Source: an uncultured Thermoleophilia bacterium
Lineage (GTDB): Bacteria; Actinomycetota; Thermoleophilia; UBA2241
Length of the DNA stretch: 64,000 bases
NCBI GenBank assembly: GCA_963696935.1
Contig: CAVOMB010000041.1
Coordinates: forward strand, 9,066-73,065
Reading direction: 5' to 3'
The position numbers were made by a program, and so were the translations under genes. A model generated the notes under the pieces. That model ran no database searches and was not told the origin of the DNA. It was given only the letters and a program-made list of their open reading frames with translations. Every line of letters starts with the position of its first letter. Position 1 is the stretch's first letter. This document shows positions 35,801 through 55,819 of the stretch, piece by piece.

Positions 35801-35915
35801 CGCCGGGATTCTACACGATGTCCAAGTCCAGAGCGAGAGGACAGGACCTCAATACCGGGCGGATTTTGTACATGCTGGCAGGACCGCAGAGGCGCGCGCC
35901 GGGCCCGCGCACCCG

Positions 35916-37562
35916 TCAGGTGCGCGTGAGCACGCGCCCGGGCAGCTCGCCGGTGACCTCGCCGTCGTCCAGCACCGGCACGCCGTTGACCACCACGAGG
36001 TCCATCCCCTCGGGCGAGCCGTGCGGGATGTTCTCGAACGGGAACGCGTGCGGGTACAGGTTGGTGGCGCGGTCGTGAACGCGGTCGAGGTCGAAGACGA
36101 CGAGGTCCGCCTTGAGCCCGGGGCGCAGCGCGCCGCGGTCGAACAGGCGGAACCGCTGCGCCGGGAAGGAGGTCATCTTGCGAACGGCCTCCTCGAGGCG
36201 CAGCACCGGCTCTTCGCGCACGTAGCGCTCGAGCACGCCCGGGTACTCCCCGTAGCTGCACGGCCAGTACACGGAGGGGTCGTCCAGCTGCTCCGGCGGC
36301 TGCATGACGAGCCCGTCCGACGAGATCATGGCGATGGGGCTCTGCAGCAGCGCCCGGATGTTCTTCTCCTCGATGTAGTCGAAGAGCCCGATGATGTCGT
36401 CGTCCTCCTCGACGATGAGGTCGAGGAAGGTGTCGAAGGCGTCGGCGCCGCGCCGGGCGGCGATGTCGGCGACGGAGCGGCCGCGCAGCTCCGGGTGGCG
36501 GCCGGCGTGGAACACCACGATGCGCTCGAAGCGGCCGTGCCGCACCAGACCGGCGTAACCGGCGCCGGGCAGCGTGTCCTCCTCGATCTCCCGGCGGAGG
36601 GCCACGCGCGCCTCCGGGTCCGAGAGTAGCGCGATCAGCGCGTCGTGGTCCAGGTCGAGCACCGGCTGCGGCAGCGCCCGCGAGAGACGCGGCGCCAGGT
36701 CGGTGTGCACGTCGTTGTCGGTGGTCACGTCGAGGCCGTCGCGGCGGGCCCGCTCGATGAGACCGAGGTTGGCCGCCGCGTCCTCAGGCGCGCCCCACTT
36801 GGGCGCGTTGTGCGACACCTCCACGGGGCAGCCCGCGGCGCGCCCCAGCTCGAGAGCCTCGGCGACAGCCTGAAGGATGGTCTCGCGCTCGCCGCGCACG
36901 TGCGACGTGTAGATGCCCTGGTGCCGCGCGACCACCCGGCAGAGCCGCAGCAGCTCCTCCGTGCTCGCGAAGCAGCCCGGCGGGTACACCAGACCGCTGG
37001 ACATACCGTGCGCGCCGGCGCGCATGCTGGCGTCCAGCAGCCGCTCCATGCGCGCCAGCTCGCGCTCGGTCACGGCCCGCTCGGCGAAGCCCGCCACGGC
37101 GAGCCGCAGCGCGCCGTGGCCGACGAGCGGCACGAGGTTGATGGCGTGGCCGCCGCGGCGCAGCGCGGCCAGGTACTGGCCGAACGTGCGCCAGTCCCAG
37201 GCCACGTGCTCCAGCCCCCACGCGTAGTGCGCCCAGTTGTGCACCGCGTCCACGCGGTGCTTCTCCGTCAGCGGCGCCGCCGACATGCCGCAGTTGCCGA
37301 TGACCTGCGTGGTGACGCCCTGCCGCACGGCCGTCTCCGCGCGCGGGTGCAGCAGGATGGTCAGGTCCGAGTGCGTGTGCGGGTCGATGAAGCCGGGTGT
37401 GACGTAGCGGTCGGCGGCGTCGACGACGCGCCGGCCGCGCAGCGTGCCCGGCGCGCCGACGGCCGCGATGCGGCCGCCGCGGATGCCGACGTCGCCGCGG
37501 TACCAGGGATTGCCGCAGCCGTCGACGATGCGCCCGTTGGCGACGACCAGGTCGTGGACCAT
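35916..37562 (-). CDS. N-acyl-D-amino-acid deacylase (D-aminoacylase) family amidohydrolase
   Basis: Start at ATG 37562 (MVHDLVVANGRIVDG...), overlapping the upstream TGA. GFIDPHTHSD, GVTTQVIGNCG and IYTSHVRGE motifs. Confidence 0.85.
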   Translation of the reverse strand: MVHDLVVANGRIVDGCGNPWYRGDVGIRGGRIAAVGAPGTLRGRRVVDAADRYVTPGFIDPHTHSDLTILLHPRAETAVRQGVTTQVIGNCGMSAAPLTEKHRVDAVHNWAHYAWGLEHVAWDWRTFGQYLAALRRGGHAINLVPLVGHGALRLAVAGFAERAVTERELARMERLLDASMRAGAHGMSSGLVYPPGCFASTEELLRLCRVVARHQGIYTSHVRGERETILQAVAEALELGRAAGCPVEVSHNAPKWGAPEDAAANLGLIERARRDGLDVTTDNDVHTDLAPRLSRALPQPVLDLDHDALIALLSDPEARVALRREIEEDTLPGAGYAGLVRHGRFERIVVFHAGRHPELRGRSVADIAARRGADAFDTFLDLIVEEDDDIIGLFDYIEEKNIRALLQSPIAMISSDGLVMQPPEQLDDPSVYWPCSYGEYPGVLERYVREEPVLRLEEAVRKMTSFPAQRFRLFDRGALRPGLKADLVVFDLDRVHDRATNLYPHAFPFENIPHGSPEGMDLVVVNGVPVLDDGEVTGELPGRVLTRT

Positions 37563-38665
37563 CAGGCGTCGCCCATCTCGAACACCTGGTACTCGTTCTC
37601 GCAAGGCGGCCCGGCGCACGCGTACATGCGCCGCTCGTCCAAGTCGCAGATGAGGCTGCCGACGGTCATGCCCTGGTCGGCCGGCGGCAGCGCGAGGTCA
37701 GGGTGGCCGCAGATGCAGTCGTCGGGAGACGGGTCATGCACGCGCAGCACGCGGGCGACGAGGTCCACAGGGTCGTCGCCGGCCGCGAGGCCCTGGGCCA
37801 GCATCCGCTCCGCCGTGGCGAGCCGCACCTCCGACTCCCCTCCCCCGTACCCCTCATAGGCCTGCATCGCCGGCGAGACGTAGTGGTTGGAGTGCGCCAT
37901 GAAGCCGGCCGCGGTGTGGTCGGCCAGGTCGAACGCGGTGGCCGAGGTCTCGAGGTCCCACAGCCGGCCGCCGGTGTCGGCGAAGAACTGGTTGGTGCCA
38001 CGGGCGCGGGCGGCCAGCAGGCCCCTGTCCCGCGCCTCCTCGATCGTGCGCGCGTCCAGCGAGGACCGGCGCACGAACACGTTGGGCACGCCGACGCGGT
38101 TGTCGGTGGAGTGCACTGAGTTGCTCACGTTGCCGAGGCCGTGGTTGTTCATGCCGAGCATGAGCAGGTACGGCGCGCCGGCCAGTCCCATGACGCGTGT
38201 GCCGTCCGGGCCGGTGAGGTCGAACAGGACGTTGTTGACGGCGTCGATGACGTACCAGTCCATGTTGTGGCCGACGATGTGCCGGCCTCCGCTGACGACG
38301 GCCACGGCCGTGCAGTGGTCGCCGGAGTGCGGGCTGTGGGCCGGCGCGGGAGCGGTGGGCTCGTCGGCGGTGAATTCCTCACCGCAGTTGAGGACCAGCA
38401 GACGGGAGAACGGCACACCGGAGCCCTCCGCGAGACCCTCGAGCTCCTCCACGTACTGCGGCAGCCAGCGGCGCGCCGCGTCCGCGTAGGCAGGCGCCTG
38501 CCGCTCGGCCTCTTCGAAGGTCAGGCGCCCCTTGGTGAGCGCCGGCAAGTCGGCGCGGAAGAACTCGACGGAGGCCAGTACCTGCTCGCGCGCGGCCTCG
38601 CCGACGGCGCGGCCTAGCTCGCGGTGGGTCCCACTGGCCTGGACGTGGACGAACGGGATCGCCAT
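37562..38665 (-). CDS. peptidase C45 / acyl-CoA:6-aminopenicillanic-acid acyltransferase-family Ntn hydrolase
   Basis: 367 aa. N-terminal propeptide-like region, then the candidate nucleophile in SGDHCTAVAV, followed by GHNMDW. Family call is by pattern recollection. Confidence 0.65.
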   Translation of the reverse strand: MAIPFVHVQASGTHRELGRAVGEAAREQVLASVEFFRADLPALTKGRLTFEEAERQAPAYADAARRWLPQYVEELEGLAEGSGVPFSRLLVLNCGEEFTADEPTAPAPAHSPHSGDHCTAVAVVSGGRHIVGHNMDWYVIDAVNNVLFDLTGPDGTRVMGLAGAPYLLMLGMNNHGLGNVSNSVHSTDNRVGVPNVFVRRSSLDARTIEEARDRGLLAARARGTNQFFADTGGRLWDLETSATAFDLADHTAAGFMAHSNHYVSPAMQAYEGYGGGESEVRLATAERMLAQGLAAGDDPVDLVARVLRVHDPSPDDCICGHPDLALPPADQGMTVGSLICDLDERRMYACAGPPCENEYQVFEMGDA

Positions 38666-38674
38666 GGCCGCAGT

Positions 38675-40150
38675 CTACAGCCCGAGCACGAGGCGCGGGT
38701 CGGGATGGTCGCCGATGCCGAGCTCGGCGGCGCAATGGTCGATGAGTCTGGCGAGCTCGTCCACCACGTCGCCGGGCAGCCCCACCGGCTCGCGGTCGGT
38801 GAACTCCTCGACGCGATCGGCGGCGAGGTCGACGATGCCGGAGCGTCCGGCGGCGAGCCAGTCGCCCATGCCGCCGCGGTAGCTCAGCGAGGGGCTGACG
38901 AACTCCGAGCGGATGTAGCGGCGCGTGTGCTTGGTGCCGAGGAACCCGCGCCCCGAGAGCACCCCGTCCACCATCGCCTCCACGTCGAGCACGTCACGGT
39001 CCCACGGGCGCGGGGCGACCGCGTACAGAGCGTTGTTCAGCACCTCGTCGTCGATGACGAGGACTTCGAGACAGCTGGCGACGCCAGCCTGGATCTCGCC
39101 GATGCCGGAGAGCAGGCGCGGGTGCGGCGACAGCCCCAGCACGGCGTTGACGGCGCGCTCGAACCCGAACTGCGCGTCGACGACCTTGCTGTCGCTGCAC
39201 GGACCGTAGCAGTCGCAGGCAAGGCCGCAGCGCCGCGCCAGCAGCACGGCGGCCACGGAGCCGACGCCGGTCTCCGGCGTGCCGCTGACGACGACGCCGC
39301 TGCGCGGGTCGACGGCGCTCAGACGTGGGCCGTAGTACACCGGCGTGCCCGGCGAGGCCAGCTGCGTGAGGACGACCCCGGCGAGCACCTCGGCGTGCTG
39401 CTGCGCCAACGCCGGCGAGAGCGCCCCGGGCGCCGTGGTGGCGGCGGCGGGGCACGGCAGGATCTCCACCGCCACGCCACCGCGGCGCACCTGCTCCACC
39501 AGCGCGTCGGAGACGTCGCCTCCCAAGATCAGCGGGCTCACCGGCGAGAAGGCGAGGTCGACGGGATAGGTCCCGTCACTGCCGCCCGCGCCGGTGACGG
39601 CCACGGCCATCTCCTGCAGGTACAGCGCCTGGAAGGCGTGCGAGATGCCGGGCCCGCCGATGGCCTTGTCTGTCTCGTGGGCGAGGATGAGGTAGGAGTA
39701 GAGCGGCTCGAGAAGGTCGGGCACGTCCTCGGGCTGCCAGAGCGACGTGACCTGCTGCTGGTGCGCCAGGTGGTGCATCACACGGGTGGCGAGCACCTGG
39801 TCGCGCAGCGTCGCACGACGCCCGGCACCGCTGCGCGGGTCGACCACGTCTCGAGCCCCGCCCAGGTTGTGCACGTAGGTCTGGGCGGGATCGGGATCCA
39901 TGGACAGGGACTTCTCGGGGTCGCGCGCGGCGAGCACGTACTCGCGCGGGCACGCGGCGAGCGCGTCGTCCACGACGGCGCGCGGGATGCTCACGCGCTC
40001 CTGCGCGCCGAGGCTGCAGCCCGCCGCGAGGAAGAGCTCCCGCGCGGCGGGAGACTCGACGCGCACCCCGGCCCGCTCGAGCAGCGTGAGCGCCGCCAGG
40101 TGCATCGCCTCGATTGCTTCGTCGGGCCAGAGTGCAGCGAGCTCGGTCAT
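38675..40150 (-). CDS. MttB-superfamily (trimethylamine methyltransferase-like) protein, non-pyrrolysine type
   Basis: 491 aa uninterrupted ORF with no in-frame TAG. The N-terminal pattern EAMHLAALTLLERAGVRVESPAARELFLAAGC and the overall length are typical of MttB/MtgB-like TIM-barrel methyltransferases. Confidence 0.8.
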   Translation of the reverse strand: MTELAALWPDEAIEAMHLAALTLLERAGVRVESPAARELFLAAGCSLGAQERVSIPRAVVDDALAACPREYVLAARDPEKSLSMDPDPAQTYVHNLGGARDVVDPRSGAGRRATLRDQVLATRVMHHLAHQQQVTSLWQPEDVPDLLEPLYSYLILAHETDKAIGGPGISHAFQALYLQEMAVAVTGAGGSDGTYPVDLAFSPVSPLILGGDVSDALVEQVRRGGVAVEILPCPAAATTAPGALSPALAQQHAEVLAGVVLTQLASPGTPVYYGPRLSAVDPRSGVVVSGTPETGVGSVAAVLLARRCGLACDCYGPCSDSKVVDAQFGFERAVNAVLGLSPHPRLLSGIGEIQAGVASCLEVLVIDDEVLNNALYAVAPRPWDRDVLDVEAMVDGVLSGRGFLGTKHTRRYIRSEFVSPSLSYRGGMGDWLAAGRSGIVDLAADRVEEFTDREPVGLPGDVVDELARLIDHCAAELGIGDHPDPRLVLGL

Positions 40151-40184
40151 GCGTGTCTCCTCCTCGTGGCGCGGGATGCGCCGG

Positions 40185-42047
40185 TCATGCGTCTTCCGTG
40201 GTCTTCGGGCGGCGCCTCAGCACCGCGAACCCTACGGCCGCGATGGCGATACCTCCGGCCACCAGGCCCCACACCCAGGCCCTGGAGGCCGGCGGTACAG
40301 GCCGCGCGGCCTGCAACGGCCGCAGGGAGATGTACGTGGAGCGCAACTGGTTCCAGAACGGCGACCCGTCCCCGCCCGGCGCCAGTACGTAGCCGGCCCA
40401 CCGGTCCGTGCGGAAGGCCTGCAGGTTCACGTTGTACCAGAGCACGACGTACGGGTCGTCGCGGTACAGGAGCTTCTGCATGGCGACGATCAGGTCCCTG
40501 CGGTGCGCGGTGTCCGTCGGGTCCGCCGGGTCGACCGCCTGCGACTGCAGCGTGTACAGGCGGTCGTACACCGGGTCCGAGTACTGGCTGTCGCTCCAGC
40601 TCATGATCTGCCGGGTGGTGAAGGTGCTCAGGATGAAGCCGGGGTCGACGTCGCCGCCCCAGCTCCAGACGAACAGGTCGTAGTCGGCGTCGTCGTAGAT
40701 GCGGTCGCTGAAATCGGCCTCGCTCATGACCTGCAGGTGCAGGGCGATGCCCACGTCGCGGCACCAGCCCACGATCATGCGCGCCGCCTCCTGGTCCGCA
40801 GGGTACTCGGTGAGCGCCGCCAAGCGGAACGAGAGCTTGCGGCCGGCGGCGTCCTCGCGGATGCCGTCGGCGTCACGGTCGCTGTACCCGGCGTCCTCCA
40901 GTATCTGCTTGGCGCGCTGGGGGTCGTAGGAGTACCGCGCGTTCTCGGGGACCTCCCAGTACCAGTCGCCCTGCGCCGGAGAGACGACCGAACCGCCGGG
41001 CACCGCCAGGCCGGCCATGGCACTGGCCACGATCTTGTCGTCGTCGATGGCCCAGTGGACGGCGCGGCGGATGGAGGCGTCGCGGAGCAGCGGGTCGCCC
41101 TTGCTCCGCGGGCTCTGCCAGCAGTTGAACCCCAGCTCGTGGAACCCGATGGCCGGTGAGGCGACCGTGCTGGAGCCGGCCACCTCCGCGTAGGCGGGCT
41201 GCATGGTGGCCGGGAAGTCGGTCACCGCGTCGAGCCTGCCGGCCCGGTAGTCCTCGAGCAGCGCCTGGGCGTCGCGCCCGACCTCGAACGTGAGCCGTGT
41301 GACGGTGGGCGGGCCGCCCAGCGCCTGCGGGTACACGGGATTGGGCTCCAGCGTGACGTCACGCCCGGCCTGGAGCCCGGTCACCCGGAACGGCCCCGAC
41401 CCGACGAACGGCAGGTTGGAGTACTCAGCCAGACGGTCGGGGTCCACCTTGCTCCAGATGTGCTCCGGCAGGATCGGGATGGCGATGGCCAGCATGTCGG
41501 CCTTGGGGCGCCGGGTGGTGATCACCACGGTGGCGTCGTCCGGCGCCTGCACGTCCTTCACGCCCGAGAGATACTGGATGTAGGCGGGCTGGTGCGTCTT
41601 CAGCACGAGGTCGTAGGTGAAGACGACGTCCCGCGCGGTGAGCGGCACCCCGTCCTGCCACTCCATGCCGTCGCGCAGGTGGAAGGTCCAAGCGAGGCCG
41701 TCTTCAGAGGGCTCCCAGCTCGTGGCTATGTCCGGAGCGGGCCGGTAGTCGGCGTCGTACCAGGTGAGGAAGTCGTAGCCGAGGCGGAAGCACTCCCACG
41801 ACACGGCGCTCCAGGAGCGGAAGGGATTGACCCCGTCGCAGTCCTGCGACGTGCCGATGCTGTAGGCGAGCGGGCCCGACGCCGGCGACGCGGCGGCGTC
41901 CGGAGAGGACGCCGCGGCCGGGAGCGCCGCCGCGAGGCACAGGACGGCCGCGACCAGTAGCGTCGGCGCGGCCGCGGCCCACGCGAGGCGCCGGCGGCTC
42001 CGCGCCGCCGCCCCGTCGTTGCGTGTCGTCTCCCGGTGGTTTCGCAT
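40185..42047 (-). CDS. ABC transporter substrate-binding protein, family 5 (peptide/nickel type), with N-terminal RR-containing signal and C-terminal TM anchor
   Basis: 620 aa. SRRRLAWAAAAPTLLVAAVLCLAAAL signal, SBP_bac_5 core (ATSWEPSEDGLAWTFHLRDGMEWQDG), and C-terminal WVWGLVAGGIAIAAVGFAVLRRRPK. Confidence 0.88.
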   Translation of the reverse strand: MRNHRETTRNDGAAARSRRRLAWAAAAPTLLVAAVLCLAAALPAAASSPDAAASPASGPLAYSIGTSQDCDGVNPFRSWSAVSWECFRLGYDFLTWYDADYRPAPDIATSWEPSEDGLAWTFHLRDGMEWQDGVPLTARDVVFTYDLVLKTHQPAYIQYLSGVKDVQAPDDATVVITTRRPKADMLAIAIPILPEHIWSKVDPDRLAEYSNLPFVGSGPFRVTGLQAGRDVTLEPNPVYPQALGGPPTVTRLTFEVGRDAQALLEDYRAGRLDAVTDFPATMQPAYAEVAGSSTVASPAIGFHELGFNCWQSPRSKGDPLLRDASIRRAVHWAIDDDKIVASAMAGLAVPGGSVVSPAQGDWYWEVPENARYSYDPQRAKQILEDAGYSDRDADGIREDAAGRKLSFRLAALTEYPADQEAARMIVGWCRDVGIALHLQVMSEADFSDRIYDDADYDLFVWSWGGDVDPGFILSTFTTRQIMSWSDSQYSDPVYDRLYTLQSQAVDPADPTDTAHRRDLIVAMQKLLYRDDPYVVLWYNVNLQAFRTDRWAGYVLAPGGDGSPFWNQLRSTYISLRPLQAARPVPPASRAWVWGLVAGGIAIAAVGFAVLRRRPKTTEDA

Positions 42048-42117
42048 AGGCCGAACGCGGGCCGACCGGGGCGGCGCAGGCGCCTCACGGCGCCGCCGCC
42101 CCGGCCGGCCCTCTCCG

Positions 42118-43158
42118 CTAGTTGTTGATCCGCAGACAGGCGGCGTAGTGGTCGCCGCGGATGTGGACGTCTTCGGGGTCGGTCTCTTTACAGGCGTCGA
42201 TCGCCTCGGGGCAGCGCGGGTGGAACCGGCAACCCGTCGGGATGTCCACGGGGTTGGGCGTCTCTCCCTTGAGGATGACGTGCTCGCGCTTGGCCAGCGG
42301 ATCCGGCACCGGGATGACGCTGATGAGCGCCTTGGTGTAGGGATGCTGCGGGTTGGCCACGACCTCTTCGGTCTCGCCGATCTCGACGATGCGCCCGAGG
42401 TACATCACGGCGATGCGGTCGCTGATCACCCACGCCAGCGAGAGGTCGTGCGTGATGAAGATGTACGTGACCCCGAGCTTCTCCTTCTCCTCCACCATCA
42501 GCTTGAGGATGTCGTTGCGGATGGAGACGTCGAGGGAGGCGACCGGCTCGTCGGCGACGATCACGTCCGGGTCGAGCACGGTGGCGCCGGCGATGCACAC
42601 GCGTTGCCGCTGCCCGCCCGAGAGCTCGTGCGGGTAGCGGTACAGGTACTCCGTCGCCGGCCTGAGGCCCGCCTCGTTGATGGCGGTGATGACCCGGTCT
42701 TCCTTCTCCCGCTCGCTCGAGGTGATGTTGTTGACCTCGAGCGGCTCGGCGACGATGTCGAAGATCGTCTGCTTGGGATTGATGGAGTTGTACGGGTCCT
42801 GGAAGATGATCTGCGCCTTCTTGCGGTACTCGCGCAGCTCCTTGCCGCTGAACTTCCGGACCGGCTTGCCCTTGTAGATGATCTCGCCGCCGGTGGCGTC
42901 TTCCAGGCGCAGGAGGGTGCGGCCGGTCGTCGTCTTGCCGCACCCCGACTCCCCGACCAGCGCGAGGATCTCACCCTTCATGATCTGGAAGGTGATGTGG
43001 TCGACCGCCTTCACGAACTTCTTCTCGGTGGCGACCATGCTTTTGAAGAAGCCTTGCTGGATCGGGAAGTACACCTCGAGGTCCTTGATGTCGAAGAGCA
43101 CCTCGCCGGCCTCGGGCGCGAGCTTGAGGTCCGGACGGTCGGTCTGCTCCGTGGCCAT
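42118..43158 (-). CDS. oligopeptide/dipeptide ABC transporter ATP-binding protein (OppF/DppF-like)
   Basis: Start at ATG 43158. Walker [10 protein letters not shown], signature LSGGQRQR, and the C-terminal oligo_HPY motif NPQHPYTKAL. Confidence 0.92.
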   Translation of the reverse strand: MATEQTDRPDLKLAPEAGEVLFDIKDLEVYFPIQQGFFKSMVATEKKFVKAVDHITFQIMKGEILALVGESGCGKTTTGRTLLRLEDATGGEIIYKGKPVRKFSGKELREYRKKAQIIFQDPYNSINPKQTIFDIVAEPLEVNNITSSEREKEDRVITAINEAGLRPATEYLYRYPHELSGGQRQRVCIAGATVLDPDVIVADEPVASLDVSIRNDILKLMVEEKEKLGVTYIFITHDLSLAWVISDRIAVMYLGRIVEIGETEEVVANPQHPYTKALISVIPVPDPLAKREHVILKGETPNPVDIPTGCRFHPRCPEAIDACKETDPEDVHIRGDHYAACLRINN

Positions 43159-43160
43159 CG

Positions 43161-44243: not shown

Positions 44244-45814
44244 TCGCCCCCCTGCTCGTCGTCCTCTATGTGGCCGCCTACCCAGCCCCCGCCGCCCTCA
44301 GGATGGATGGAGCCGCCGGCCGGCTGGTTGAAGTCGGGCATGGCGTCGTCGGTCTGCTGACCCGGCGTGAACAAGCCGGCGCTGCCGCCCACGCCACCGC
44401 CGCCGGCCACGGCCACCTGCGGCTCACCGCGGGCCGTGAAGCGGCTCTCGCCGGTGCTGTCCTCGCGCTTGCGCAGCTTGGGATCGAGCACCTCGTCGTA
44501 GGCCGTGCCGATGAACGTGAACGCGAGCACCACCAGGATGATGGCGATGCCCGGCGGGAGCAGGTACCACCACGCGGGCAGGCCGGCGGCACCGTTGACC
44601 CACGCGTTGTGCAGCATGGTGCCCCAGCTGAAGTTGAGCGGGTCGCCGAGCCCCAGGAACGACAGGGTCGTCTCCGAGAGGATCGCGATGGCGACCACGA
44701 GCACCAGGTTGGCGAAGATCAGCGGCATCACGTTGGGCAGCACGTGCTTGCTCATGATGTGCCCGTTCTTGGAGCCGATGGCCCTGGCCCGCTCGATGAA
44801 GCTGAGCTCGCGCACGCGCAGGACGTCCGAGCGGACCACGCGCGCCGTACCCGGCCAGCTGGTGATACCGATGATGACGATGATGAGCCAGAAGTTCTGA
44901 CCCCAGGCCGCGACCAGCACCATGGCGAGCGGCAGCCAGGGGATGACCAGGAACGCGTCTGTTAACCGCATCCACGCTTCGCCTTGCCACCCCCCGTAGA
45001 AGCCTGCGGCGATGCCGATGCCGGCGCCGAGGACGGTGGCCATGAGGGCTGCGAGCAGCCCAACCAGCAGCGAGATGCGCGCGCTCCAGATGAACTCCGC
45101 GAGCACGCTCTGGCCCACCTGGTCGGTGCCGAACCAGTTGTAGTAGTACGCGGTCGGCGGGTGATACGGGCCGTAGAGCTCGCCCGTCGCGGGGTCCTTG
45201 ATCTGAGCATTGGGATCGAGCAGCGCGTGGTCGGCGAGGAACGGCGCCAGCAGAGCCATGGCCAGGAACACGATGAGGATGCCGAGGCCGATGATGCCCT
45301 GCATGTTGCCGCGGTACAGCCGCCACACCTGATGCGTGTTCCAGGTGGTGAGTTCCGCGCGCTCGGGGTTGCCGGCGGCCCAGAAGTACACGGTGACGCC
45401 GCCGAGCAGGATGGCCACCGTCTGGACGGCCCAGTTGTAGGTGATCACGTTCTCGCCGGCGGACCAGCCGCCGAACCCGCCGCCGGCGAGCACGGCCCAC
45501 ACGACGAACAGGGCGCCCTCGACCAGCAGGAGCACATTGAAGGTCACAGCCTTGCTGCGGCGCACCAGGCCGATGACGCCGGCGGCGAAGCAGCAGATGG
45601 CAAGGAGGATCATGACCCACGGCGGGTAGGCGCCGACGGTCTCGGCGAAGAACCCCTTGATCACCGCACGGAAGCCGCTGGTGATCGGGACGGTCTTTGG
45701 ATACGTGAGCAACTCGAGGACGATCCAGAGCATGATCGTCCAGAAGACGACCCAGTTGCGGAAGCGACGGGGCACGAGCGGTGCTGCGGCGTGGTCCTTG
45801 CCTTGCCCGTTCAT
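44240..45814 (-). CDS. ABC transporter permease (OppC/DppC-like) with ~160-aa extra N-terminal 4-TM module and Gly-rich C-terminal tail
   Basis: 524 aa. The canonical core starts near WRLYRGNMQGIIGLGIL and contains an EAA-like loop (IERARAIGSKNGHIMSKHVLPN). The N-terminus has four hydrophobic segments. Confidence 0.88.
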   Translation of the reverse strand: MNGQGKDHAAAPLVPRRFRNWVVFWTIMLWIVLELLTYPKTVPITSGFRAVIKGFFAETVGAYPPWVMILLAICCFAAGVIGLVRRSKAVTFNVLLLVEGALFVVWAVLAGGGFGGWSAGENVITYNWAVQTVAILLGGVTVYFWAAGNPERAELTTWNTHQVWRLYRGNMQGIIGLGILIVFLAMALLAPFLADHALLDPNAQIKDPATGELYGPYHPPTAYYYNWFGTDQVGQSVLAEFIWSARISLLVGLLAALMATVLGAGIGIAAGFYGGWQGEAWMRLTDAFLVIPWLPLAMVLVAAWGQNFWLIIVIIGITSWPGTARVVRSDVLRVRELSFIERARAIGSKNGHIMSKHVLPNVMPLIFANLVLVVAIAILSETTLSFLGLGDPLNFSWGTMLHNAWVNGAAGLPAWWYLLPPGIAIILVVLAFTFIGTAYDEVLDPKLRKREDSTGESRFTARGEPQVAVAGGGGVGGSAGLFTPGQQTDDAMPDFNQPAGGSIHPEGGGGWVGGHIEDDEQGGE

Positions 45815-46800
45815 GCCTGCACCCTTGGGTCGAGGTAGTAGTACATGATGTCGGCGATGAGGTTGGCGACGATCACCGCGACGCTGGCGATGAGGAACAC
45901 GGCCTGCATCACGGGGTAGTCGCGCTTCTGCATCGAGTCGTAGGACAGCAAGCCCAGACCCGGCCAGTTGAAGACGCTCTCCGCGAGGATCGCGCCCGAC
46001 ATCACGAACCCGAGGTTCATCATCACGATGGTCACCGTGGGCAGCATCGCGTTGGGCACCACGTGCCGCCAGAGGACCGAGTTCTCACTCAGGCCCTTGG
46101 CGCGGGCGGTGAGTGCGAAATCCTCCTTCATCACGCCGGTGATGGAGCTGCGCATGATGAGGTGGTACTCGCCGACGTAGGCGACGGCGAACGTGAACGC
46201 CGGCAGGAACAGGTGCTTCATCAGCGACTGGAAGGCGGCGAAGCCGCTGAGCTCCACCCCCGGCTCTTCCATGCGCCCGGTGGGGAACCAGCGGAGCTTG
46301 GTCGCGAACAGCATGATCATCAGGAGGCCGAACCAGAAGGTAGGCATGGCGTACAACACCATGCCTAAGTTGGTACTCACAACATCGTAAGTGCCGTTGC
46401 GTCTCCACCCCGCGAAGACGCCGGTGATCATACCTATGATGGTGGCAAAGACCGTGCCCACCCCCACGAGTAGGATGGTGGGCCAGATGCGCTCTGCGAC
46501 GACCTCGGTGACGGGGCGCTTCTCGGAGAACGACATGCCGAACTTGCCCTGGATGGTGTCGCGCCAGTAGTAGAGGAACTGGACCTGCAGAGGCTTGTCG
46601 AGGTTGAACGTCTTGCGCTGGCGCTCGATGACCGACGGGTCCGTCTTCCCTTTGGGGAGCAGGAGCCTGGCCGGGTCGCCCGGGAGGATGCGGAAGAGCG
46701 CGAAGTTGAACGAGGCCACGAGGACGACCGTGAGGACCGCGTTCAGGATCTTCCGGATGAAGTACCTGCGTTTGTCCACGTCACTGCGGGCCCCCCTCAC
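45811..46800 (-). CDS. ABC transporter permease (OppB/DppB-like)
   Basis: 329 aa. YFIRKILNAVLTVVLVASFNFALFRILPGDP is the typical OppB N-terminus. The true start may be the internal GTG (VDKRRY...) about 21 nt downstream. Confidence 0.9.
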   Translation of the reverse strand: MRGARSDVDKRRYFIRKILNAVLTVVLVASFNFALFRILPGDPARLLLPKGKTDPSVIERQRKTFNLDKPLQVQFLYYWRDTIQGKFGMSFSEKRPVTEVVAERIWPTILLVGVGTVFATIIGMITGVFAGWRRNGTYDVVSTNLGMVLYAMPTFWFGLLMIMLFATKLRWFPTGRMEEPGVELSGFAAFQSLMKHLFLPAFTFAVAYVGEYHLIMRSSITGVMKEDFALTARAKGLSENSVLWRHVVPNAMLPTVTIVMMNLGFVMSGAILAESVFNWPGLGLLSYDSMQKRDYPVMQAVFLIASVAVIVANLIADIMYYYLDPRVQA

Positions 46801-47003
46801 TCCCCTCGGAGCGCTGCGGACCCTTACCCCCTTCTCACATCCGTGGTTGCCGGACCCCTGATGACACTCGAAATGCCGTACCAGATAGACGGCTCTGGAG
46901 AGAGCCTCGTGTGGTTAGACGGAAGCCTCTCCCGGTTCCGTCGGGTGAGTGCCTCAGAATATGCGCGCCGGGGAGGCGCGGCAAGGCGAGCGGTGCGGGT
47001 GGG

Positions 47004-48116
47004 TCAGACCCCGGGCAGCCGCGCCTCGCGGCCGGCGCGCCGCAGCGACTCCACGAGCCGGTCGAGCGGCAGCTCATAGGCGGTGTTGCCGTCGCGGCCC
47101 ACCGTGGTCGTGGCGGCCGTGAGGGCGTTGCAGACGCTCTCGGCCGTGGCGTCCACCGCGGCCTCGAAGAGCTCGAACATCTGGTCGTTGGTCACGGCCG
47201 CGAGGGTGAAGAGCTCGTCCGCCTTGCGCGGCAGCCGAAAGGCGGTGGAGAACGCGACCATGATCTCGCCGCTGCCGTCGGACGCGTAGGAGCCCGTCGC
47301 GGCCAGCCCCAGGGAGCAGCGCTTGGCCATGCGCTCGCACTGGCGGGCGGTGAGCGGCGCGTCCGTGGCCAGTACCACGATGCACGACCCCTCCCTGTTC
47401 TCCAGCGGCATGAGGTCGGGTATGTCGCGGCCCACGGGGACGCCGTCCACACTCAGGCGGTGGCGCACGCCGAAGTTGGTGAGCGCCAGCACCCCGACCG
47501 TCCACTGGGCACCGTGCGCCGTGGCCACCCGGGACGAGGTGCCGATGCCGGCCTTGAAGTCGAAGCACGACATGCCGGCGCCGGCCCCGACGCAGCCTTC
47601 GGCCACGGGGCCGGCCTCCGCGGAGTCGAGCGCCGCGCGGACGTGCTCCTCGCGCACGTGCATGCCGCGCAGGTCGTTGAGGAACCCGTCGTCGCACTCG
47701 CCGACCACGGGCATCACGGCGTCCTCGATGCCGGCGGACGGCTCCCGGTCGAGCACCCAGCGCACGGTCGCGTCGTACACGGCGCCGGCGCTCTGCGAGT
47801 TGGTGAGCAGGATGGGTGTCTCGATGAGGCCCCACTCACGGATGGCGCTGATGCCGATGACCTCGCCGACGCCGTTGGCGGCGTGGGCGCCGGCGACGAC
47901 ACGCTGGCGCCAGAGGTCGCCGGAGTGCGGGAAGATGGCGGTGACGCCCGTGCGGGCGGGCCCGCTGCCGGAAGGCAGCTCGGGCCCGCCCCACGAGACG
48001 GTGCTGTGGCCGACGCGCACGCCGGGCACGTCGGTGATCGCGTTGAGCGATCCGGCCGGCAGCCTGCCGACGGCGACGCCGAGGTCGCGCAGGCGACAGC
48101 GCTCCGGCGCGGTCAT
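47004..48116 (-). CDS. DmpA/BapA-type (peptidase S58, P1) L-aminopeptidase/D-esterase-family Ntn hydrolase
   Basis: 370 aa. ITDVPGVRVGH...TGVTAI...GECDDGFLND...GSCIVVLATDAPL, where the self-cleavage G/S-type site is expected. Confidence 0.8.
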   Translation of the reverse strand: MTAPERCRLRDLGVAVGRLPAGSLNAITDVPGVRVGHSTVSWGGPELPSGSGPARTGVTAIFPHSGDLWRQRVVAGAHAANGVGEVIGISAIREWGLIETPILLTNSQSAGAVYDATVRWVLDREPSAGIEDAVMPVVGECDDGFLNDLRGMHVREEHVRAALDSAEAGPVAEGCVGAGAGMSCFDFKAGIGTSSRVATAHGAQWTVGVLALTNFGVRHRLSVDGVPVGRDIPDLMPLENREGSCIVVLATDAPLTARQCERMAKRCSLGLAATGSYASDGSGEIMVAFSTAFRLPRKADELFTLAAVTNDQMFELFEAAVDATAESVCNALTAATTTVGRDGNTAYELPLDRLVESLRRAGREARLPGV

Positions 48117-48123
48117 GGTCCTG

Positions 48124-48942
48124 TTACTCCAGGATGCCGGCGCGGTGGGCCTTGAGGTATGCGCCGCAGAAGTTGTCCTCGCCGCGGAGCGCCTCGACCG
48201 ACTTGATGGTCGCCATCATCTGCTTGTTGCGCACGTCGACGATGAGGCCGTCGAGGCCGAGGCCGGCGCACATGGCCACGAAGGTGCGGTTGAGCAGGCC
48301 GCGGTTCGGCAGGCCGAAGCTCACGTTGCTGAGACCGCCGGTGGTGCGGGACGGCAGACGGTCCTTGACCAGCTTGAGCGTCTCCATGGTGACGCCCGGA
48401 GCGGACGGATCGGCGGACACGGCCATGACCAGCGGGTCGACCCAGAGGTCCTCAGCCGGAAGGCCGGCGCCGGTGCACAGGTCGAAGATCTTCTGCGCGA
48501 CGGCAAAGCGGTCCTCGGCGGTCGGCGGGATGCCCTCGTCGCTCAGGCAGAGGCCGACGACCGGGCACTTGTGCTTCTCCACCAGCGGGAGCACGGCGTC
48601 GATGCGCGGCTGCTCACCGGAGATCGAGTTGATGAACGGCACCTTGCCGCCCTTGTCGATGATGGCCTGTACCCCGGCGTCGAGCGCCTTGGGGTTGGCC
48701 GAGTCGACCATGAGCTGCATGTCGGTGACGCCCATGACGACCTCGATGAGCCACAAGAGGTCCTCGACCTCGTTGCCGCCGGCGACGCCGCCGTTGACAT
48801 CGAGAAGACCGGCGCCGGCGTCGATCTGGTCCTGCGCCAAGGCCTTGATGAACTCCACGTCACGCGCCTGGATCGCCTCGGCGACCGCCTTGCGCGTCCC
48901 GTTGATCGATTCACCCATCAACAGCATCTCAACAACCTCCAC
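48124..48942 (-). CDS. pterin-binding methyltetrahydrofolate:corrinoid methyltransferase (MeTr/MtgA/MtqA-like)
   Basis: 272 aa. LLMGESINGTRKAVAEAIQARDVEFIKALAQDQIDAGAGLLDVNGG is the classic Pterin_bind N-terminus. ATG 48927 is the likelier start, with GGAGG 8 nt upstream. Confidence 0.85.
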   Translation of the reverse strand: MEVVEMLLMGESINGTRKAVAEAIQARDVEFIKALAQDQIDAGAGLLDVNGGVAGGNEVEDLLWLIEVVMGVTDMQLMVDSANPKALDAGVQAIIDKGGKVPFINSISGEQPRIDAVLPLVEKHKCPVVGLCLSDEGIPPTAEDRFAVAQKIFDLCTGAGLPAEDLWVDPLVMAVSADPSAPGVTMETLKLVKDRLPSRTTGGLSNVSFGLPNRGLLNRTFVAMCAGLGLDGLIVDVRNKQMMATIKSVEALRGEDNFCGAYLKAHRAGILE

Positions 48943-49063
48943 GACGATTACCCGGGACGGACGCCTGTGAGTATATGCGAAGGTTTGTGCGCTAGTGAAC
49001 CTGATCCGGCGGGCGCCGGGCGCGGCGAGGCTGGAGGGTCGCGGCGGAGGTCGCGGGAGGAGC

Positions 49064-49309
49064 TCAGACGCCGTCGGGCGGCGGGACGATCCAAGCCGGC
49101 GGGCGGCGGCGGCGGTCCTCGCGGCGGCGCTCGCGGGCCCGCGGCCCGCCCTCGCGGCGGCGCTCCTCTACCCGGCGGTCGATCCTGACCTCGACGTCGT
49201 CTCGCCCGCTGAAGAGCGCGGCGAAGTGCTCGTAGAGCCGCTCGCGCTGCGGCCCGGTCACGAAGAGCACGTGCTCGGCATGTACGGTTTTCACGCTCTC
49301 GTTCACCAC
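49064..49309 (-). CDS. hypothetical small protein with Arg-rich C-terminal tail
   Basis: 81 aa: MVNESVKTVHAEHVLFVTGPQRERLYEHFAALFSGRDDVEVRIDRRVEERRRE.... It sits in operon context between ALDH and MeTr. No family named with confidence. Confidence 0.4.
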   Translation of the reverse strand: MVNESVKTVHAEHVLFVTGPQRERLYEHFAALFSGRDDVEVRIDRRVEERRREGGPRARERRREDRRRRPPAWIVPPPDGV

Positions 49310-49378
49310 ATCGGTACTGTACCCCGCGCGGACGGCAGTGACAGACGCGGGCGTAGCCGGGCCTGTGCACGCGACTGC

Positions 49379-50821
49379 TCAGGCGTAGGTGATGTACACC
49401 GTCTTGATGCGCGTGTAGAAGTCGCGCGCGGCCGGGCCCTGCTCCTTGAACGTGTTGGCGCTGGACTGTTTGAAGCCGCCGAACGGCGCCTGCAGGGCGA
49501 GGCCGGTGGTCGGCTCGTTGACCTTGACCACGCCGGCCTCGATGCGGTCGACGAACGTCAGCGCCCGGCGCAGGTCGTTGGTGACGACGCTGGCGGCGAG
49601 GCCGTAGCCGACGGCGTTGGCCTTGAAGATGGCGTCGTCGAGGTCCCGGGCGCGGATGATGCCGACCACTGGGCCGAAGATCTCCTCCTGAGCCAGACGG
49701 CTGTGGACCTCGACACTGTCGAAGACCGTGGGGCGCAGGAAGTGGCCGGCGTTCGCGGCGCGGCCGCCGCCGGCCAGCAGCTCCGCCCCCTCCTCGCGGC
49801 CGATGCGCACGTAGTCGAGGTCGGTCTCGAGCTGGTCCGCGCTGACGGCCGGACCCATCTGCACACCCTCCTCGAGGCCGTCGCCGATGTTGAGCGCGTC
49901 GGCGGCCTCGGCGAGAGCGTCGGCGAAGCGGTCGGCGATGCCCTCCTCGACGATCACCCGGCTCGTGGCCGTGCAGCTCTGCCCGGTGAGCCCGAAACCG
50001 CCCATGACCGCCAGCCGGACGGCCAGCCGCAGGTCTGCGTCGTCGAGGACGATGGTCGGGTTCTTGCCGCCCATCTCGAGCTGCACGCGCGCGAAGTGCT
50101 CCGCGGCGCGCGCGTAGATCCGCGACCCGGTGTCGCGCGACCCCGTGAAGGTGAGGCCCTGCACCACGGGGTCGCCGGAGAACGCCGCACCCACGACGGA
50201 GCCCGGGCCGGTGACCAGGTTGAGCACCCCGGCCGGCAGACCGGCGTCGACGAGACACTCCACCAGGCGCAGTGCCGTGAGCGGCGTGTCGCTGGCCGGT
50301 TTGAAGACGACGGTGTCGCCGTAGGCGAGCGCCGGGGCGATCTTCCAGGCGGGGATGGCGATGGGGAAGTTCCACGGCGTGATGGCGGCGACGACCCCGA
50401 GCGGCTCGCGGCGGCTGAACAGCATGCCGTCCGGGGCGTTGGGCGGCAGGACGTCGCCGCCCATGCGCCAGCCCTCACCGCCGAAGTACCGCAGGATGTC
50501 GCGCGCGCGGACGACCTCGCCGGTGGCCTCGGCGAGAGTCTTGCCCTCCTCGCGCGTGAGCGTGCGCGCCACCTCGTCGAGACGCTCGGTGAGCAACTCC
50601 GCGGCCTTGAAGAGGATGGCGCCGCGGTTCGGCGCCGGCGTGAGCCGCCAGGCGGGGGACGCCTCGGCCGCCGCGGCAGCGGCCTGAGCCGCGTCGGCGG
50701 CGGTCGCGCTCGGGAACACGGCGAGGACCTCGTCCGGGGCGGCCGGGTTCCTCGTCTCGAAGCTGGCGTGGTCGCTGGAGCCGACCCACTCGCCGCCGAT
50801 CAGATTCTTGCACGTCTCCAT
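49379..50821 (-). CDS. NAD(P)+-dependent aldehyde dehydrogenase
   Basis: 480 aa. ITPWNFP, FTGS, catalytic ELGG-equivalent LEMGGKNP, and Cys in GQSCTA. Confidence 0.92.
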
Positions 50822-50876
50822 CGTCTGCCCCCCCGTCGCGATGCGTGGCCCGCCTCACGCAACGATACTACGGGCT

Positions 50877-51704
50877 TTACGCCTCCGGCAGCGGGACGAG
50901 CACGCGATCCGAGAGGCGAAGCGTCTCGCGATACCCCGCCTCCCGGGCGTGGCCGATGGCCTCGCCCCAGGCGCGCGCCACGTGCTCAACCTCGTGCGCG
51001 TCCGAGTCGATGGTCAGAGGGATGCCGCGCGCGCGAGCGCCGTGCAGTATCTCGAGCGACGGGTACATGACGCCGGCCGCGTCGGTGAAGCGGTCCGTGT
51101 TCAGCTCGATGGCGGCGCCGCAGGCCGCGAGCGCGTCCAGCGCCGCGTCGATCTCCGGCAGGACCGCCGCACCAGGCCGGTGCCCCCACAGGCCGATGTA
51201 GTCCATGTGCGCGAGGATGTCGAAGCGCCCCCACTCGGCCGCCCGCCGAACGGTGCGGTAGTAGGCGGCCAGCAAGGCGTCCGGGTCGTCCCAACGAGGG
51301 TCCTTGCGCAGAGCCGGGTCGTCGAAGATGAACCCGTCCACTTCGTGCACTCCGAGGACGACGACCTCGAACGGCCAGGCGGCGAGCAGTTCCTCGAGTT
51401 GCTGCTCCTGGCCGGCCACGTACTCGGCTTCCAGCCCGAGGAGCACCTTCACGTCGTCGTGACGCGCCGCCACGGCGTGCACCTCGTCCAGGTACTCGCC
51501 GAGCCGCTCCGGCCGCAGCCACCAGTCCTCGCCCAGGCCCGGCGCCGGCGTTACGTGCTCGGCGACGGCGATCTCGGGCAGGCCGAGCTCGGCGGCCCGG
51601 CGGGCGACGTCCTCGACGCTGCCCCTGCCGTCCGACCACTCCGTGTGGATGTGGTAGTCGCCGGGCGTGACCAGGCGAGCGGCGTCCGGCCTGGGCGCGG
51701 TCAT
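50877..51704 (-). CDS. PHP-domain (histidinol-phosphatase-like) metal-dependent phosphoesterase
   Basis: Start at ATG 51704, overlapping the upstream stop (ATGA): MTAPRPDAARLVTPGDYHIHTEWSDG...AEHV...LAHMDY...IDSDAH. Confidence 0.8.
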   Translation of the reverse strand: MTAPRPDAARLVTPGDYHIHTEWSDGRGSVEDVARRAAELGLPEIAVAEHVTPAPGLGEDWWLRPERLGEYLDEVHAVAARHDDVKVLLGLEAEYVAGQEQQLEELLAAWPFEVVVLGVHEVDGFIFDDPALRKDPRWDDPDALLAAYYRTVRRAAEWGRFDILAHMDYIGLWGHRPGAAVLPEIDAALDALAACGAAIELNTDRFTDAAGVMYPSLEILHGARARGIPLTIDSDAHEVEHVARAWGEAIGHAREAGYRETLRLSDRVLVPLPEA

Positions 51705-53026
51705 TCCTCGACCTCGCGCCCGCTCCCGCGCCGCTTGAGAAGCACGACGACGAACGATCCGCCGATCAGGACGACGACGCCGATCACCACCCAGGCCGTC
51801 GTCGACAGCCCGCCGCTCTCTGCCGCCGCGGTCGCTGCTACCTTGGGCCTCACGGTCAGGTAGCTCTGGCGGTCGATCATGTTGGCCCACACGCTGCCGC
51901 CCACGTAAGGCTGCCAGCCCTCCCACCGTGATGTGTTCACAGCCTGCAGCACGGAGGGGTAGTCGATCACGATCATGGGCTGCTCCGCGTACATGACGGC
52001 CTGGCCCTACTTGAGCAGTTCCATGCACTTCGCGGTGTCCATCTCGCGGTACTGCTCCTCCGTGAGCTTGTCGTACTGCGCGTTCGACCAGTTCATCTCG
52101 TTGTAGTTCTCGATCTGGTCGGTGGTGAAGCAGGCCGCGGAGTCGCCCGGGTCGATGTAGCCCATGAAGTCCCAGAGCGCGAGGTCGTAGTCGGGCGCGT
52201 ACGTGTCGCCCTTGTAGTTCCAGATGGCGTCGCCCAGCGCGCCCTCGTCGACCACGGAGAGCTTGACGTCGTCGTTGGTGTAGTACTGGAAGATGACCTC
52301 GTCGATGCTGGGCTGCTTGCCCCAGTAGGAGGGGTCGCGGACCATCTTCACGTAGTCGTCCTTCTTGAACTCCACGGTCTGGAACGGCCCCGAGCCGACG
52401 ATCGGCGTGGGGTTGCGGAACGTGGTGTTCAGCTGGCTGGGAGTCAGCTTGCCCCAGATGTGCTCGGGCAGGACGTAGATGTAGATCTGCGTCGTGAGCA
52501 TGTTGGCCTTGGGCTGCGTGCAGCACACCTTGAGCGTGGTGTCGTCGACGGCGACGGCCTTCTTCACGCCCTTGAGGTAGACGGAGGTGCTCAGATCGTC
52601 CCTGAGGATGGTGTTGAACGTCCAGGCCGCGTCGGCGGCGGTGAGCGGCTGGCCGTCCTGCCACTTCACGCCGGGCCGGATCTTGAACGTCCACTTCTTC
52701 TGGTCCGGCGAGAGCGACCAGTCCTCCGCGAGGCCGGTCTCCTTGGACGGGAGCCCGTCGGCGCCGATGCCGACCAGCGTGTCGTAGTTGAGCATCCAGA
52801 TCTCATAGGACGTGCTGTAGCCGACGAAGGGGTTGAGGTTGAGCGGCCCCTCGTTCCAGCCCAGCCGCAGGGTGACCTTGCCGGAGGCGGGCGTCGCCGC
52901 CGGCGAGGACGTGGCGGCGAAGACCGTCGCTACACAGGCGGCCAGGAGTGTGAGCAGGACGATGACGGTGATGGTGAGTGTGACGACGCCCTGCCGTCCG
53001 CGCCGGCCGGTGTCTCGTCTGTTCAT
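51701..53026 (-). pseudogene. second family-5 substrate-binding protein with C-terminal TM anchor, interrupted by an in-frame TAG at 52007..52009
   Basis: ORF 52007..53047(-) and ORF 51701..51994(-) are in the same frame and separated only by TAG: ...DTAKCMELLK-TAG-GQAVMYAEQPMIVIDYPSVLQAV.... The alignment to the first SBP (RRDLIVAMQKLLYRDDPYVVLWYNVNLQAF) is collinear across the stop. Start at ATG 53026 (MNRRDTGRR...). Confidence 0.8.
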
Positions 53027-55638: not shown

Positions 55639-55819
55639 ACCATCTCGGAGCAAGACATGAGCAGGGCATGAGCGGACGGCTAAAGGACTGTTTTCCAGGT
55701 ATTTCACCCCGTCCAAGGAGCGTGCTCCTGTGTGTCAATCCGGGTCTTCGAGTGCCGCCCCCCTGGTCGCCGGCAGGCGCAGGGCCTAGGATGTGGGCGA
55801 TGGGACCGGGGCCGCGCAC

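Follow-up and report, generated by a model that had tools for sequence, protein, structure and literature searches.

What does a gene cluster consume that combines a methylamine-type methyltransferase with a peptide-type importer and amide hydrolases, and do its parts belong to one pathway? This question is raised by a 64,000-nucleotide stretch of DNA from an uncultured soil bacterium of the class Thermoleophilia (Actinomycetota; GCA_963696935.1, contig CAVOMB010000041.1, positions 9,066 to 73,065; hereafter the window), which carries on its minus strand a homologue of the MttB methyltransferase superfamily without pyrrolysine (non-Pyl MttB), a pterin-binding methyltransferase (MeTr), a complete Opp-type ATP-binding cassette (ABC) importer and three unusual hydrolases. 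An earlier note, made from the sequence alone, had proposed a pathway that imports and hydrolyses N-methylated, betaine-bearing or D-/beta-amino-acid-containing peptides or N-acyl amino acids and passes the methyl groups to tetrahydrofolate (THF). With roughly even confidence, our analysis points to a conserved catabolic island for a small amide-linked N-methylated compound, which would be imported, hydrolysed at its amide bond and N-demethylated to THF in a corrinoid-dependent manner. In the steps proposed, presumably in this order, a family-5 solute-binding protein (SBP1) and OppBCDF would import the compound; C45 and S58, two self-processing N-terminal nucleophile (Ntn) hydrolases, and a D-aminoacylase-like Amidohydro_3 enzyme would cleave the amide bond or bonds; the MttB homologue, a TIM barrel, would move the N-methyl group to a corrinoid protein, from which MeTr would hand it to THF; and a PucR-family regulator would activate the island.

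Open reading frame (ORF) listing and profile searches recovered all the families named in the earlier note, on the minus strand and where it had placed them (Table 1). The junctions that it had described were re-read in the sequence and are as stated: C45 and Amidohydro_3 overlap by 1 nt (TGATG), 9 nt separate the TAG of MttB from the ATG of C45, 7 nt separate the TAA of MeTr from the ATG of S58, a second family-5 SBP frame (SBP2) and a PHP-family gene overlap as ATGA, and gaps of 203 nt and 115 nt lie between S58 and OppB and before PucR, respectively. OppB and OppC also overlap as ATGA, OppC and OppD as GTGATG, and SBP1 and MttB are 34 nt apart.

Table 1. Coordinates of the genes and elements of the island and of its upstream flank in the window.
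Feature	Coordinates	Strand	Basis
PucR-family transcription regulator	34163-35800	-	PF07905, PF17853, PF13556 (PucR, GGDEF_2, HTH_30)
Amidohydro_3 metallo-amidohydrolase, D-aminoacylase-like	35916-37562	-	Pfam; PDB 1m7j 251 bits
C45 (AAT-type) Ntn hydrolase/acyltransferase	37562-38665	-	PF03417; NF040521 177.5 bits, cut-off 85
MTTB, non-Pyl MttB-superfamily protein	38675-40150	-	PF06253 213 bits
SBP1, SBP_bac_5 (family-5 solute-binding protein)	40185-42047	-	PF00496 261 bits
GC-rich inverted repeat (GGCCGGCCGGGGCGGCGGCGCC / GGCGCCTGCGCCGCCCCGGTCGGCC)	42060-42110	-	70-nt spacer, OppF stop to SBP1 start
OppF	42118-43158	-	Pfam (ABC_tran, oligo_HPY)
OppD	43161-44243	-	Pfam (ABC_tran, oligo_HPY)
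OppC	44240-45814	-	Pfam (BPD_transp_1, OppC_N)
OppB	45811-46800	-	Pfam (BPD_transp_1)
Promoter-like element TTGCCG-17 nt-TATTCT	46984-46956	-	Alignment of 34 orthologous intergenic regions
S58 (DmpA/BapA-type) aminopeptidase/amidase	47004-48116	-	PF03576 380 bits, cut-off 23.9
MeTr, Pterin_bind methyl-THF:corrinoid methyltransferase (MtxA/MeTr type)	48124-48942	-	PF00809; NF005719 284 bits, cut-off 259
TATACT element ~30 nt upstream of MeTr	48970-48975	-	Alignment of orthologous intergenic regions
Small ORF, 81 aa	49064-49309	-	No family match
Aldehyde dehydrogenase (ALDH; Aldedh)	49379-50821	-	Pfam
PHP, HisJ-family phosphatase	50877-51704	-	Pfam; TIGR01856 104 bits, cut-off 90
SBP2, predicted remnant (family-5 SBP pseudogene)	51701-53026	-	In-frame TAG 52007-52009 and internal deletion

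To see whether this arrangement is kept in relatives, close homologues of MttB were aligned and the alignment was used to scan a single genome for each GTDB species, which gave 78 loci (L numbers below designate individual loci); the window proteins were mapped onto the loci by tblastn. The counts that follow refer to species-representative Actinomycetota loci with an MttB identity of at least 60% and sufficient flank. MeTr and OppBCDF were each found in 40 of 41 loci, S58 in 37 of 41 and the small ORF upstream of MeTr in at least 31 of 41. C45 is present in 44 of 45 loci, as is PucR downstream of the cluster; Amidohydro_3 is present in 37 of 45, and MttB keeps its place between SBP1 and C45 in 44 of 45. 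Since the core order recurs in more than 40 species-level genomes, the grouping of these genes is not due to chance. The conserved core consists of the small ORF, MeTr-S58, OppBCDF-SBP-MttB-C45-Amidohydro_3 and PucR, and extends over 34163-49309 instead of the limits of 35916-53026 drawn previously.

Variants of the core are informative for the link between its two methyltransferases. The minimal locus L042 consists of ALDH, MeTr, SBP, MttB and PucR; it has lost the permeases and the hydrolases and has kept MeTr with MttB, which ties MeTr to MttB. Other loci have gained genes: a second C45 in L046 and L058, an M55 DppA-type D-aminopeptidase in L003, and extra SBPs in some variant loci.

Further variation was seen among these loci. 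L014 and L021 carry a second SBP5-MttB pair between Amidohydro_3 and PucR, in which MttB is 52-53% identical to the window protein, and stand-alone SBP5-MttB paralogue loci (L067, L070 and L072) occur in the same metagenome-assembled genomes (MAGs) as L014 and L021; in L070 the pair adjoins an M24 creatinase/prolidase-type gene. In a group with 60-64% MttB identity, a signalling protein of about 1000 aa with GAF-GGDEF-HD-GYP domains is encoded between the small ORF and MeTr (L059:741-3917 and L065:39-2876; also L061 and L063). Orthologues of S58, SBP1, C45, OppC, MttB and Amidohydro_3 appear split into adjacent pieces in L013, L062 and L046, most likely as a result of indel errors in the assemblies and not as true pseudogenes.

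The association extends to a second phylum. In an Anaerolineae sister group with 35-39% MttB identity, MttB is accompanied by an Opp-type importer, C45, Amidohydro_3 and other deacylases in a different gene order. In L077, OppDCB, SBP, C45 and a Creatininase-family gene are divergent from an MttB-C45-MttB series with overlapping stop and start codons. In L083, Amidohydro_3, Ala_racemase_N, two AAT genes and, as extra MttB genes, three complete ones and a fragment lie beside MttB-SBP5-OppBCDF-AstE_AspA; L084 carries SBP-OppBCDF, Amidohydro_3, MttB, AAT and M20; and L085 and L086 carry MttB, SBP5-OppBCDF and AstE_AspA. Because importer and amide hydrolases accompany the MttB lineage in two phyla with shuffled order, inherited synteny is a poor explanation for their company, and one pathway is favoured. 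The coupling, physical and in all probability also functional, of a non-Pyl MttB and MeTr with a peptide-class importer and atypical amidases, which the earlier note had noticed in this single genome, is thus real and conserved in Actinomycetota, and the partnership of MttB with importer and amidases recurs independently in Anaerolineae.

Some Anaerolineae loci (L082, from JGI 3300039093, L083, L075 and L077) contain arrays of 2-5 MttB paralogues. At least four sequence types can be distinguished among them; the residue at the position of R312 of MtgB (see below) is N, S, H/I or C in these, and Arg in none. L082 and L075 each encode a single corrinoid protein. Such arrays suggest uncharacterised systems for multi-substrate or stepwise demethylation.

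The MttB homologue matches the MTTB profile over its full length (E = 6e-63, positions 33-499 of 500) and reaches less than half of the cut-off of TIGR02369, the equivalog model of Pyl MttB (244 versus 525 bits). Its matches in PDB include Methanosarcina barkeri MttB (7xcl, 146 bits, E ~1e-41) and Desulfitobacterium hafniense MtgB (139 bits, E ~1e-39; 29% identity). The pyrrolysine position of 7xcl aligns with Cys318, which is encoded by an ordinary sense codon, and TAG is a common stop here, ending 9 of the 44 confident window genes, including MttB itself and GroES. A Pyl-dependent trimethylamine methyltransferase is ruled out by these features together with the missed TIGR02369 cut-off, and the protein is non-Pyl, as had been proposed. 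When representatives of 50%-identity clusters were searched exhaustively, only about six full-length clusters were found at 43-53% identity and the next best at no more than 37%; the characterised enzymes would not be among the best 150. Scores against MtgB or MttB are no better than those against the bulk of the superfamily. Judged indirectly, by identity and score, the homologue therefore does not group tightly with a characterised betaine methyltransferase, in line with the earlier expectation. Its predicted structure, built from a 24-sequence alignment, is of low confidence, with a predicted local distance difference test (pLDDT) value of 48.7.

Glycine betaine is held in MtgB by Y97, R312, H348 and F356, of which R312 binds the carboxylate; the R312L mutant is inactive. 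Every member with a known function is reported to retain R312, and the substrates of these enzymes are without exception acidic quaternary amines (PMC13080624). These positions were compared in HMMER and MAFFT alignments with 120 close homologues. The window protein has a glycine (or a gap, depending on the alignment), D313, S348 and G356, respectively; D313 and G356 are invariant and S348 is found in 119 of the 120. At the R312 position, the Anaerolineae sister group and many other uncharacterised representatives have a "D/N-VYG" signature in common with the window protein, with Asp in the clade of the window protein and Asn in the sister group. By these residues the protein is not a disguised MtgB, MtcB, MtpB or MtyB, and the base of its pocket would be opposite in charge to that of the characterised enzymes. 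As the arginine of the known enzymes is an invariant aspartate and other ligands are glycine, the methyl donor is unlikely to be an acidic betaine; a methylamine that is larger and either non-acidic or cationic appears the better candidate, and the substrate is probably bulkier. The "betaine-bearing" part of the substrate proposed earlier is weakened accordingly, with the aromatic and histidine ligands being Gly, Ser and Gly.

For the second methyl transfer, MeTr passes the methyl-THF:corrinoid/iron-sulfur protein methyltransferase model NF005719 and lies below the AcsE-specific model (142 versus 370 bits), with PDB matches to D. hafniense 4o0q (158 bits) and Moorella AcsE (155 bits). The MtxA component of a three-component system is therefore encoded with MttB, at the frequency given above for MeTr. 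As to the corrinoid partner itself, B12-binding proteins adjoin clade members in the Anaerolineae loci L075 and L082, and at the contig edge of L060, a Thermoleophilia locus, a corrinoid-protein C-terminus (GAPPTRAGADESGADGYAEDAL...; L060:2-103) lies 357 nt upstream of OppB. In Thermoleophilia the corrinoid protein and its reductive activase would be encoded elsewhere in the genome; in Ruegeria pomeroyi, an MtgB system and methionine synthesis use a common corrinoid component (PMC12478193). Corrinoid proteins were also sought in the 3.3-3.6 kb gaps of L059, L061 and L063 (of which L059 was scanned) and in the 3.1 kb upstream of MeTr in L065, and the GAF-GGDEF-HD-GYP protein was found there instead.

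The importer is a complete Opp/Dpp-type system with a family-5 SBP, two permeases and two ATPases with an oligo_HPY C-terminal domain. The nearest structure to SBP1 is AppA (105 bits); no close structure with a known ligand was found, and SBP1 scores 172 bits against Opp4A (cut-off 650). In both SBP1 and the SBP2 remnant, the C-terminus is a hydrophobic helix with basic residues behind it, a candidate membrane anchor. At 524 aa, OppC exceeds the usual length; it is extended by some 160 aa at the N-terminus and has a Gly-rich tail at the C-terminus.

Among the hydrolases, Amidohydro_3 scores 251 bits with D-aminoacylase (1m7j), 237 with N-acyl-D-Glu deacylase (3gip) and 182 with carbohydrate de-N-acetylase (9kb1), and does not reach the cut-off of NF006560. 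C45 belongs to its family by NF040521, and S58 scores 320 bits with 2drh, 243 with DmpA (1b65) and 226 with BapA (3n2w); self-processing of both is predicted from their families. All these families act on N-acyl-amino-acid, N-terminal D-/beta-aminoacyl or similar small amide bonds, which fits the general idea of the earlier note. The small ORF (GC content at third codon positions, GC3, 0.87) has no match in Pfam or NCBIfam. It has 62 homologues, all unnamed and seemingly restricted to the lineage of the host, nearly always just upstream of MeTr, which share the motif VLFVTGP.R..LY..F..LF.GRDDV.V..DRR..ERR...ERR..RR..P.W.VPP with its N-terminal VLFVTGP..R..LY and a (D/E)RR-rich tail; the tail suggests nucleic-acid binding.

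Orthologous intergenic regions were aligned to seek conserved promoter-like footprints, and three elements were found: one just downstream of S58, a TATACT upstream of MeTr, and TGTAGAAT at the start of PucR, which would give this gene a promoter of its own close to its ATG. These footprints would divide the island into about four co-directional units, namely the small ORF, MeTr-S58, OppBCDF-SBP-MttB-C45-Amidohydro_3 and PucR. The view of the cluster as a single operon probably has to give way to one of several units. PucR is the likely activator of the island, and its targets could also include the nearby alanine dehydrogenase gene; it is weakly similar to AdeR, an activator of alanine dehydrogenase. 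A leader RNA or riboswitch in the S58-OppB gap was considered and rejected, as the OppB leader gave no Rfam match at E <= 1 and folds no better than shuffled sequence (z = -0.83). The inverted repeat between OppF and SBP1 may form a stem-loop inside the operon, by which the relative expression of the SBP-MttB-hydrolase part would be set.

Several observations weigh against a single pathway. The Chloroflexota orthologues of MttB (63-66% identity; L047-L051, L054 and L064, labelled Chloroflexia, Limnocylindrales or Chloroflexota) adjoin AsnC, major facilitator superfamily (MFS) or Na/H-exchanger genes, and neither hydrolases nor MeTr are present near them; the coupling of MttB with the hydrolases is therefore not obligatory. 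S58 and Amidohydro_3 are lost in some lineages, and selection need not account for all of the synteny within the class, part of which could have been inherited. Non-peptide ligands such as sugars, opines and de-N-acetylation substrates are likewise handled by family-5 SBPs and D-aminoacylase-like enzymes, and no natural substrate can be named that fits all the parts. Finally, B12-binding proteins are absent from the 64-kb window; in some 55 Thermoleophilia loci, tblastn and hidden Markov model (HMM) searches detected no corrinoid protein at 10 kb or less from MttB, apart from the L060 fragment; and no RamA-type activase was noticed in the gene annotation of the window and the loci. The Chloroflexota proteins are as close to the window protein as some Actinomycetota copies are, which suggests that the methyltransferase gene was passed between phyla on its own.

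Some of these observations would agree with two unrelated functions lying side by side, an explanation that we consider somewhat unlikely and that survives better than the others. The Opp importer, SBP, S58, C45 and Amidohydro_3 would then serve to scavenge N-acyl amino acids or D-, beta- or other unusual peptides, such as those derived from cell walls; MttB and MeTr would independently demethylate a small free methylamine taken up by another route, and the two sets of genes would be neighbours only through inherited synteny or shared nitrogen regulation. Consistent with this, relatives add peptide hydrolases (M55 in L003; M20, S9 and AstE_AspA in Anaerolineae), Chloroflexota keep MttB without hydrolases, MeTr-S58 and the block from Opp to Amidohydro_3 seem to be separately promoted, and genes for an NlpC/P60 protein, a class-A beta-lactamase-like protein and alanine dehydrogenase lie in the neighbourhood. 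However, MttB is embedded between SBP1 and C45 by short gaps, and this placement is almost invariably kept; the same company is found with rearranged order in a second phylum, down to the stop/start overlaps of MttB-C45-MttB; and a betaine-type carrier (BCCT or OpuA) was not seen near any clade member.

A single pathway also has to be weighed against a MttB homologue that is no corrinoid methyltransferase at all. Its TIM barrel would have been recruited for another reaction or for binding in amide catabolism, and MeTr would serve general one-carbon (C1) metabolism. The Thermoleophilia loci without an adjacent corrinoid protein, the replacement of all four mapped MtgB ligands and a clade without a characterised member are compatible with such a change of function. 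We find it improbable given the linkage of MeTr, which stays with MttB even in L042, the corrinoid proteins that adjoin in L075, L082 and L060, and the match to the MTTB family from end to end.

A still less probable explanation is an ordinary demethylase of glycine betaine or another known acidic betaine (MtgB-, MtcB-, MtpB- or MtyB-like) placed beside peptide genes by chance. It would account for the shared superfamily and the adjacent MeTr, and homologues are named 'trimethylamine--corrinoid protein Co-methyltransferase' in source databases. The low identity to MtgB, the four replaced ligands, among them the arginine needed for activity in MtgB, and the missing betaine carrier argue to the contrary.

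The genes upstream of the small ORF probably are variable neighbours outside the system. ALDH, PHP or both are missing at this position in L010, L020, L035, L037 and L039, where the core is intact; PHP directly precedes the small ORF in L010, L020 and L035, and GroEL directly precedes the small ORF or MeTr in L037 and L039. PHP lies above the cut-off of TIGR01856, a HisJ-family histidinol-phosphatase model. The top score of ALDH is with 2,5-dioxovalerate dehydrogenase (602 bits, cut-off 750); it passes neither of the betaine-aldehyde dehydrogenase (BADH) models, scoring 427 bits where 669 are needed for BADH. The alternative reading of the earlier note, that PHP and ALDH turn a phospho-alcohol or aldehyde into a betaine for the MttB homologue, has in its favour that both genes are co-directional and upstream in the window, and is hardly credible given their dispensability, these family assignments and the lack of an alcohol or choline dehydrogenase.

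SBP2, listed previously as a working gene, does not stand as such. Its frame is interrupted by an in-frame TAG, the part corresponding to SBP1 residues 256-435 is gone (some 180 aa, lost in frame), and its Pfam match covers positions 5-174 of 368 in the model. With TAG an ordinary stop here, the interrupted frame and the loss mark SBP2 as a predicted pseudogene remnant; reading the TAG as pyrrolysine was rejected for the same reasons. The position is empty in all five relatives read that far upstream (L023, L030, L035, L037 and L039). The remnant retains a high GC3 and its overlap with PHP, and looks like the recent decay of a paralogue.

The window has a G+C content of about 70% and contains housekeeping genes (a ClpB-type AAA+ chaperone with Clp_N, AAA_2 and ClpB_D2-small domains, FtsH, GroES/GroEL, CarD, GreA and NAD-synthesis genes). 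Its proteins have their nearest relatives in MAGs from soils, lakes, peat and digesters that represent uncultured Thermoleophilia and other Actinomycetota. A block at 29070-34124, which follows PucR and comprises beta-lactamase2-SDR on the opposite strand, alanine dehydrogenase and aldehyde:ferredoxin oxidoreductase (AFOR), is found in most Thermoleophilia loci (L001-L066); an AFOR gene also adjoins the MttB array of L082 (L082:2024-3859). The AFOR gene beside the cluster suggests an anaerobic or facultative host. No connection to the cluster was found for a molybdopterin oxidoreductase with a pyrogallol-hydroxytransferase-like first domain (1051-3831, +), the NlpC/P60 cell-wall hydrolase (27391-28527, +) or a D-Tyr-tRNA deacylase (55790-56263, +). 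An Rfam scan of the whole window gave one tRNA and nothing else.

For most of the MttB superfamily no substrate is known, and the characterised non-Pyl members all use acidic quaternary amines. The association, across phyla, of a distinct MttB clade with peptide-type importers and amide hydrolases thus provides a testable lead to a new class of substrates. Tentatively, the Asp/Asn clade could represent such a class, specialised in amide-linked or amide-derived N-methyl compounds, with Opp-type uptake and a dedicated C45, and widespread in soil and wetland Thermoleophilia and in Anaerolineae. Its substrates might be N-methylated peptides, N-acyl amino compounds or non-acidic amine products, possibly including non-quaternary methylamines handled without pyrrolysine. 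It would suggest that methyl groups enter folate C1 metabolism by a new way in the abundant uncultured bacteria of soil, peat and sediment. At the methane-emitting Stordalen Mire, related Actinobacteriota are reported to express genes for demethylation of methylated amines, Bog-752 is among the three most active genera of bacterial methylotrophs, and non-Pyl mttB genes were treated as specific for quaternary amines (PMC10805028); L076, from a MAG whose isolate is named bog_752, carries the cluster. Caution is advisable with metagenomes, since a non-Pyl mttB need not always encode a demethylase of glycine betaine or choline.

Among known systems, Bacillus subtilis dppABCDE combines the D-aminopeptidase DppA with a dipeptide ABC importer. 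It resembles the island in encoding a peptide-class ABC importer with a hydrolase of D-amino-acid peptides, a likeness extended by the M55 DppA-type gene of L003, and differs in having no methyltransferase components and in its hydrolases, which in the island are S58, C45 and Amidohydro_3. On the side of methyl transfer, the best PDB match of the MttB homologue, the Pyl MttB of M. barkeri, has the same fold family; the island protein differs from it by Cys318, by its score against TIGR02369 and by the TAG that terminates its own gene. The MtgB-MtgC-MtgA system of D. hafniense also pairs a non-Pyl MttB-superfamily protein with a pterin-binding methylcorrinoid:THF methyltransferase. The island departs from it in the sequence of its MttB, with Asp in place of R312 and the other ligands replaced, in having no adjacent corrinoid protein, in using an Opp-type importer instead of a betaine carrier, and in its embedded hydrolase genes. 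MtcB, MtpB, MtyB and MthB of Eubacterium limosum are of the same superfamily and presumably share the same corrinoid-dependent chemistry; they keep the equivalent of R312 (PMC13080624), where the island clade has Asp or Asn. The MtgBCD system of R. pomeroyi, which demethylates glycine betaine aerobically, offers a precedent for a shared rather than dedicated corrinoid partner; it belongs to another clade, with other ligands and another gene context, and neither hydrolases nor an Opp-type importer are described there (PMC12478193). No description of an architecture of MttB with peptidases and transporter, including for Thermoleophilia, Anaerolineae and Actinobacteria, was found by full-text literature searches directed at it, in agreement with the earlier note, which knew of no described system of this composition. 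The chemistry of the island is probably the known corrinoid-dependent methyl transfer; what is new is the clade, the predicted charge of its substrate, the type of importer and the hydrolases embedded with it.

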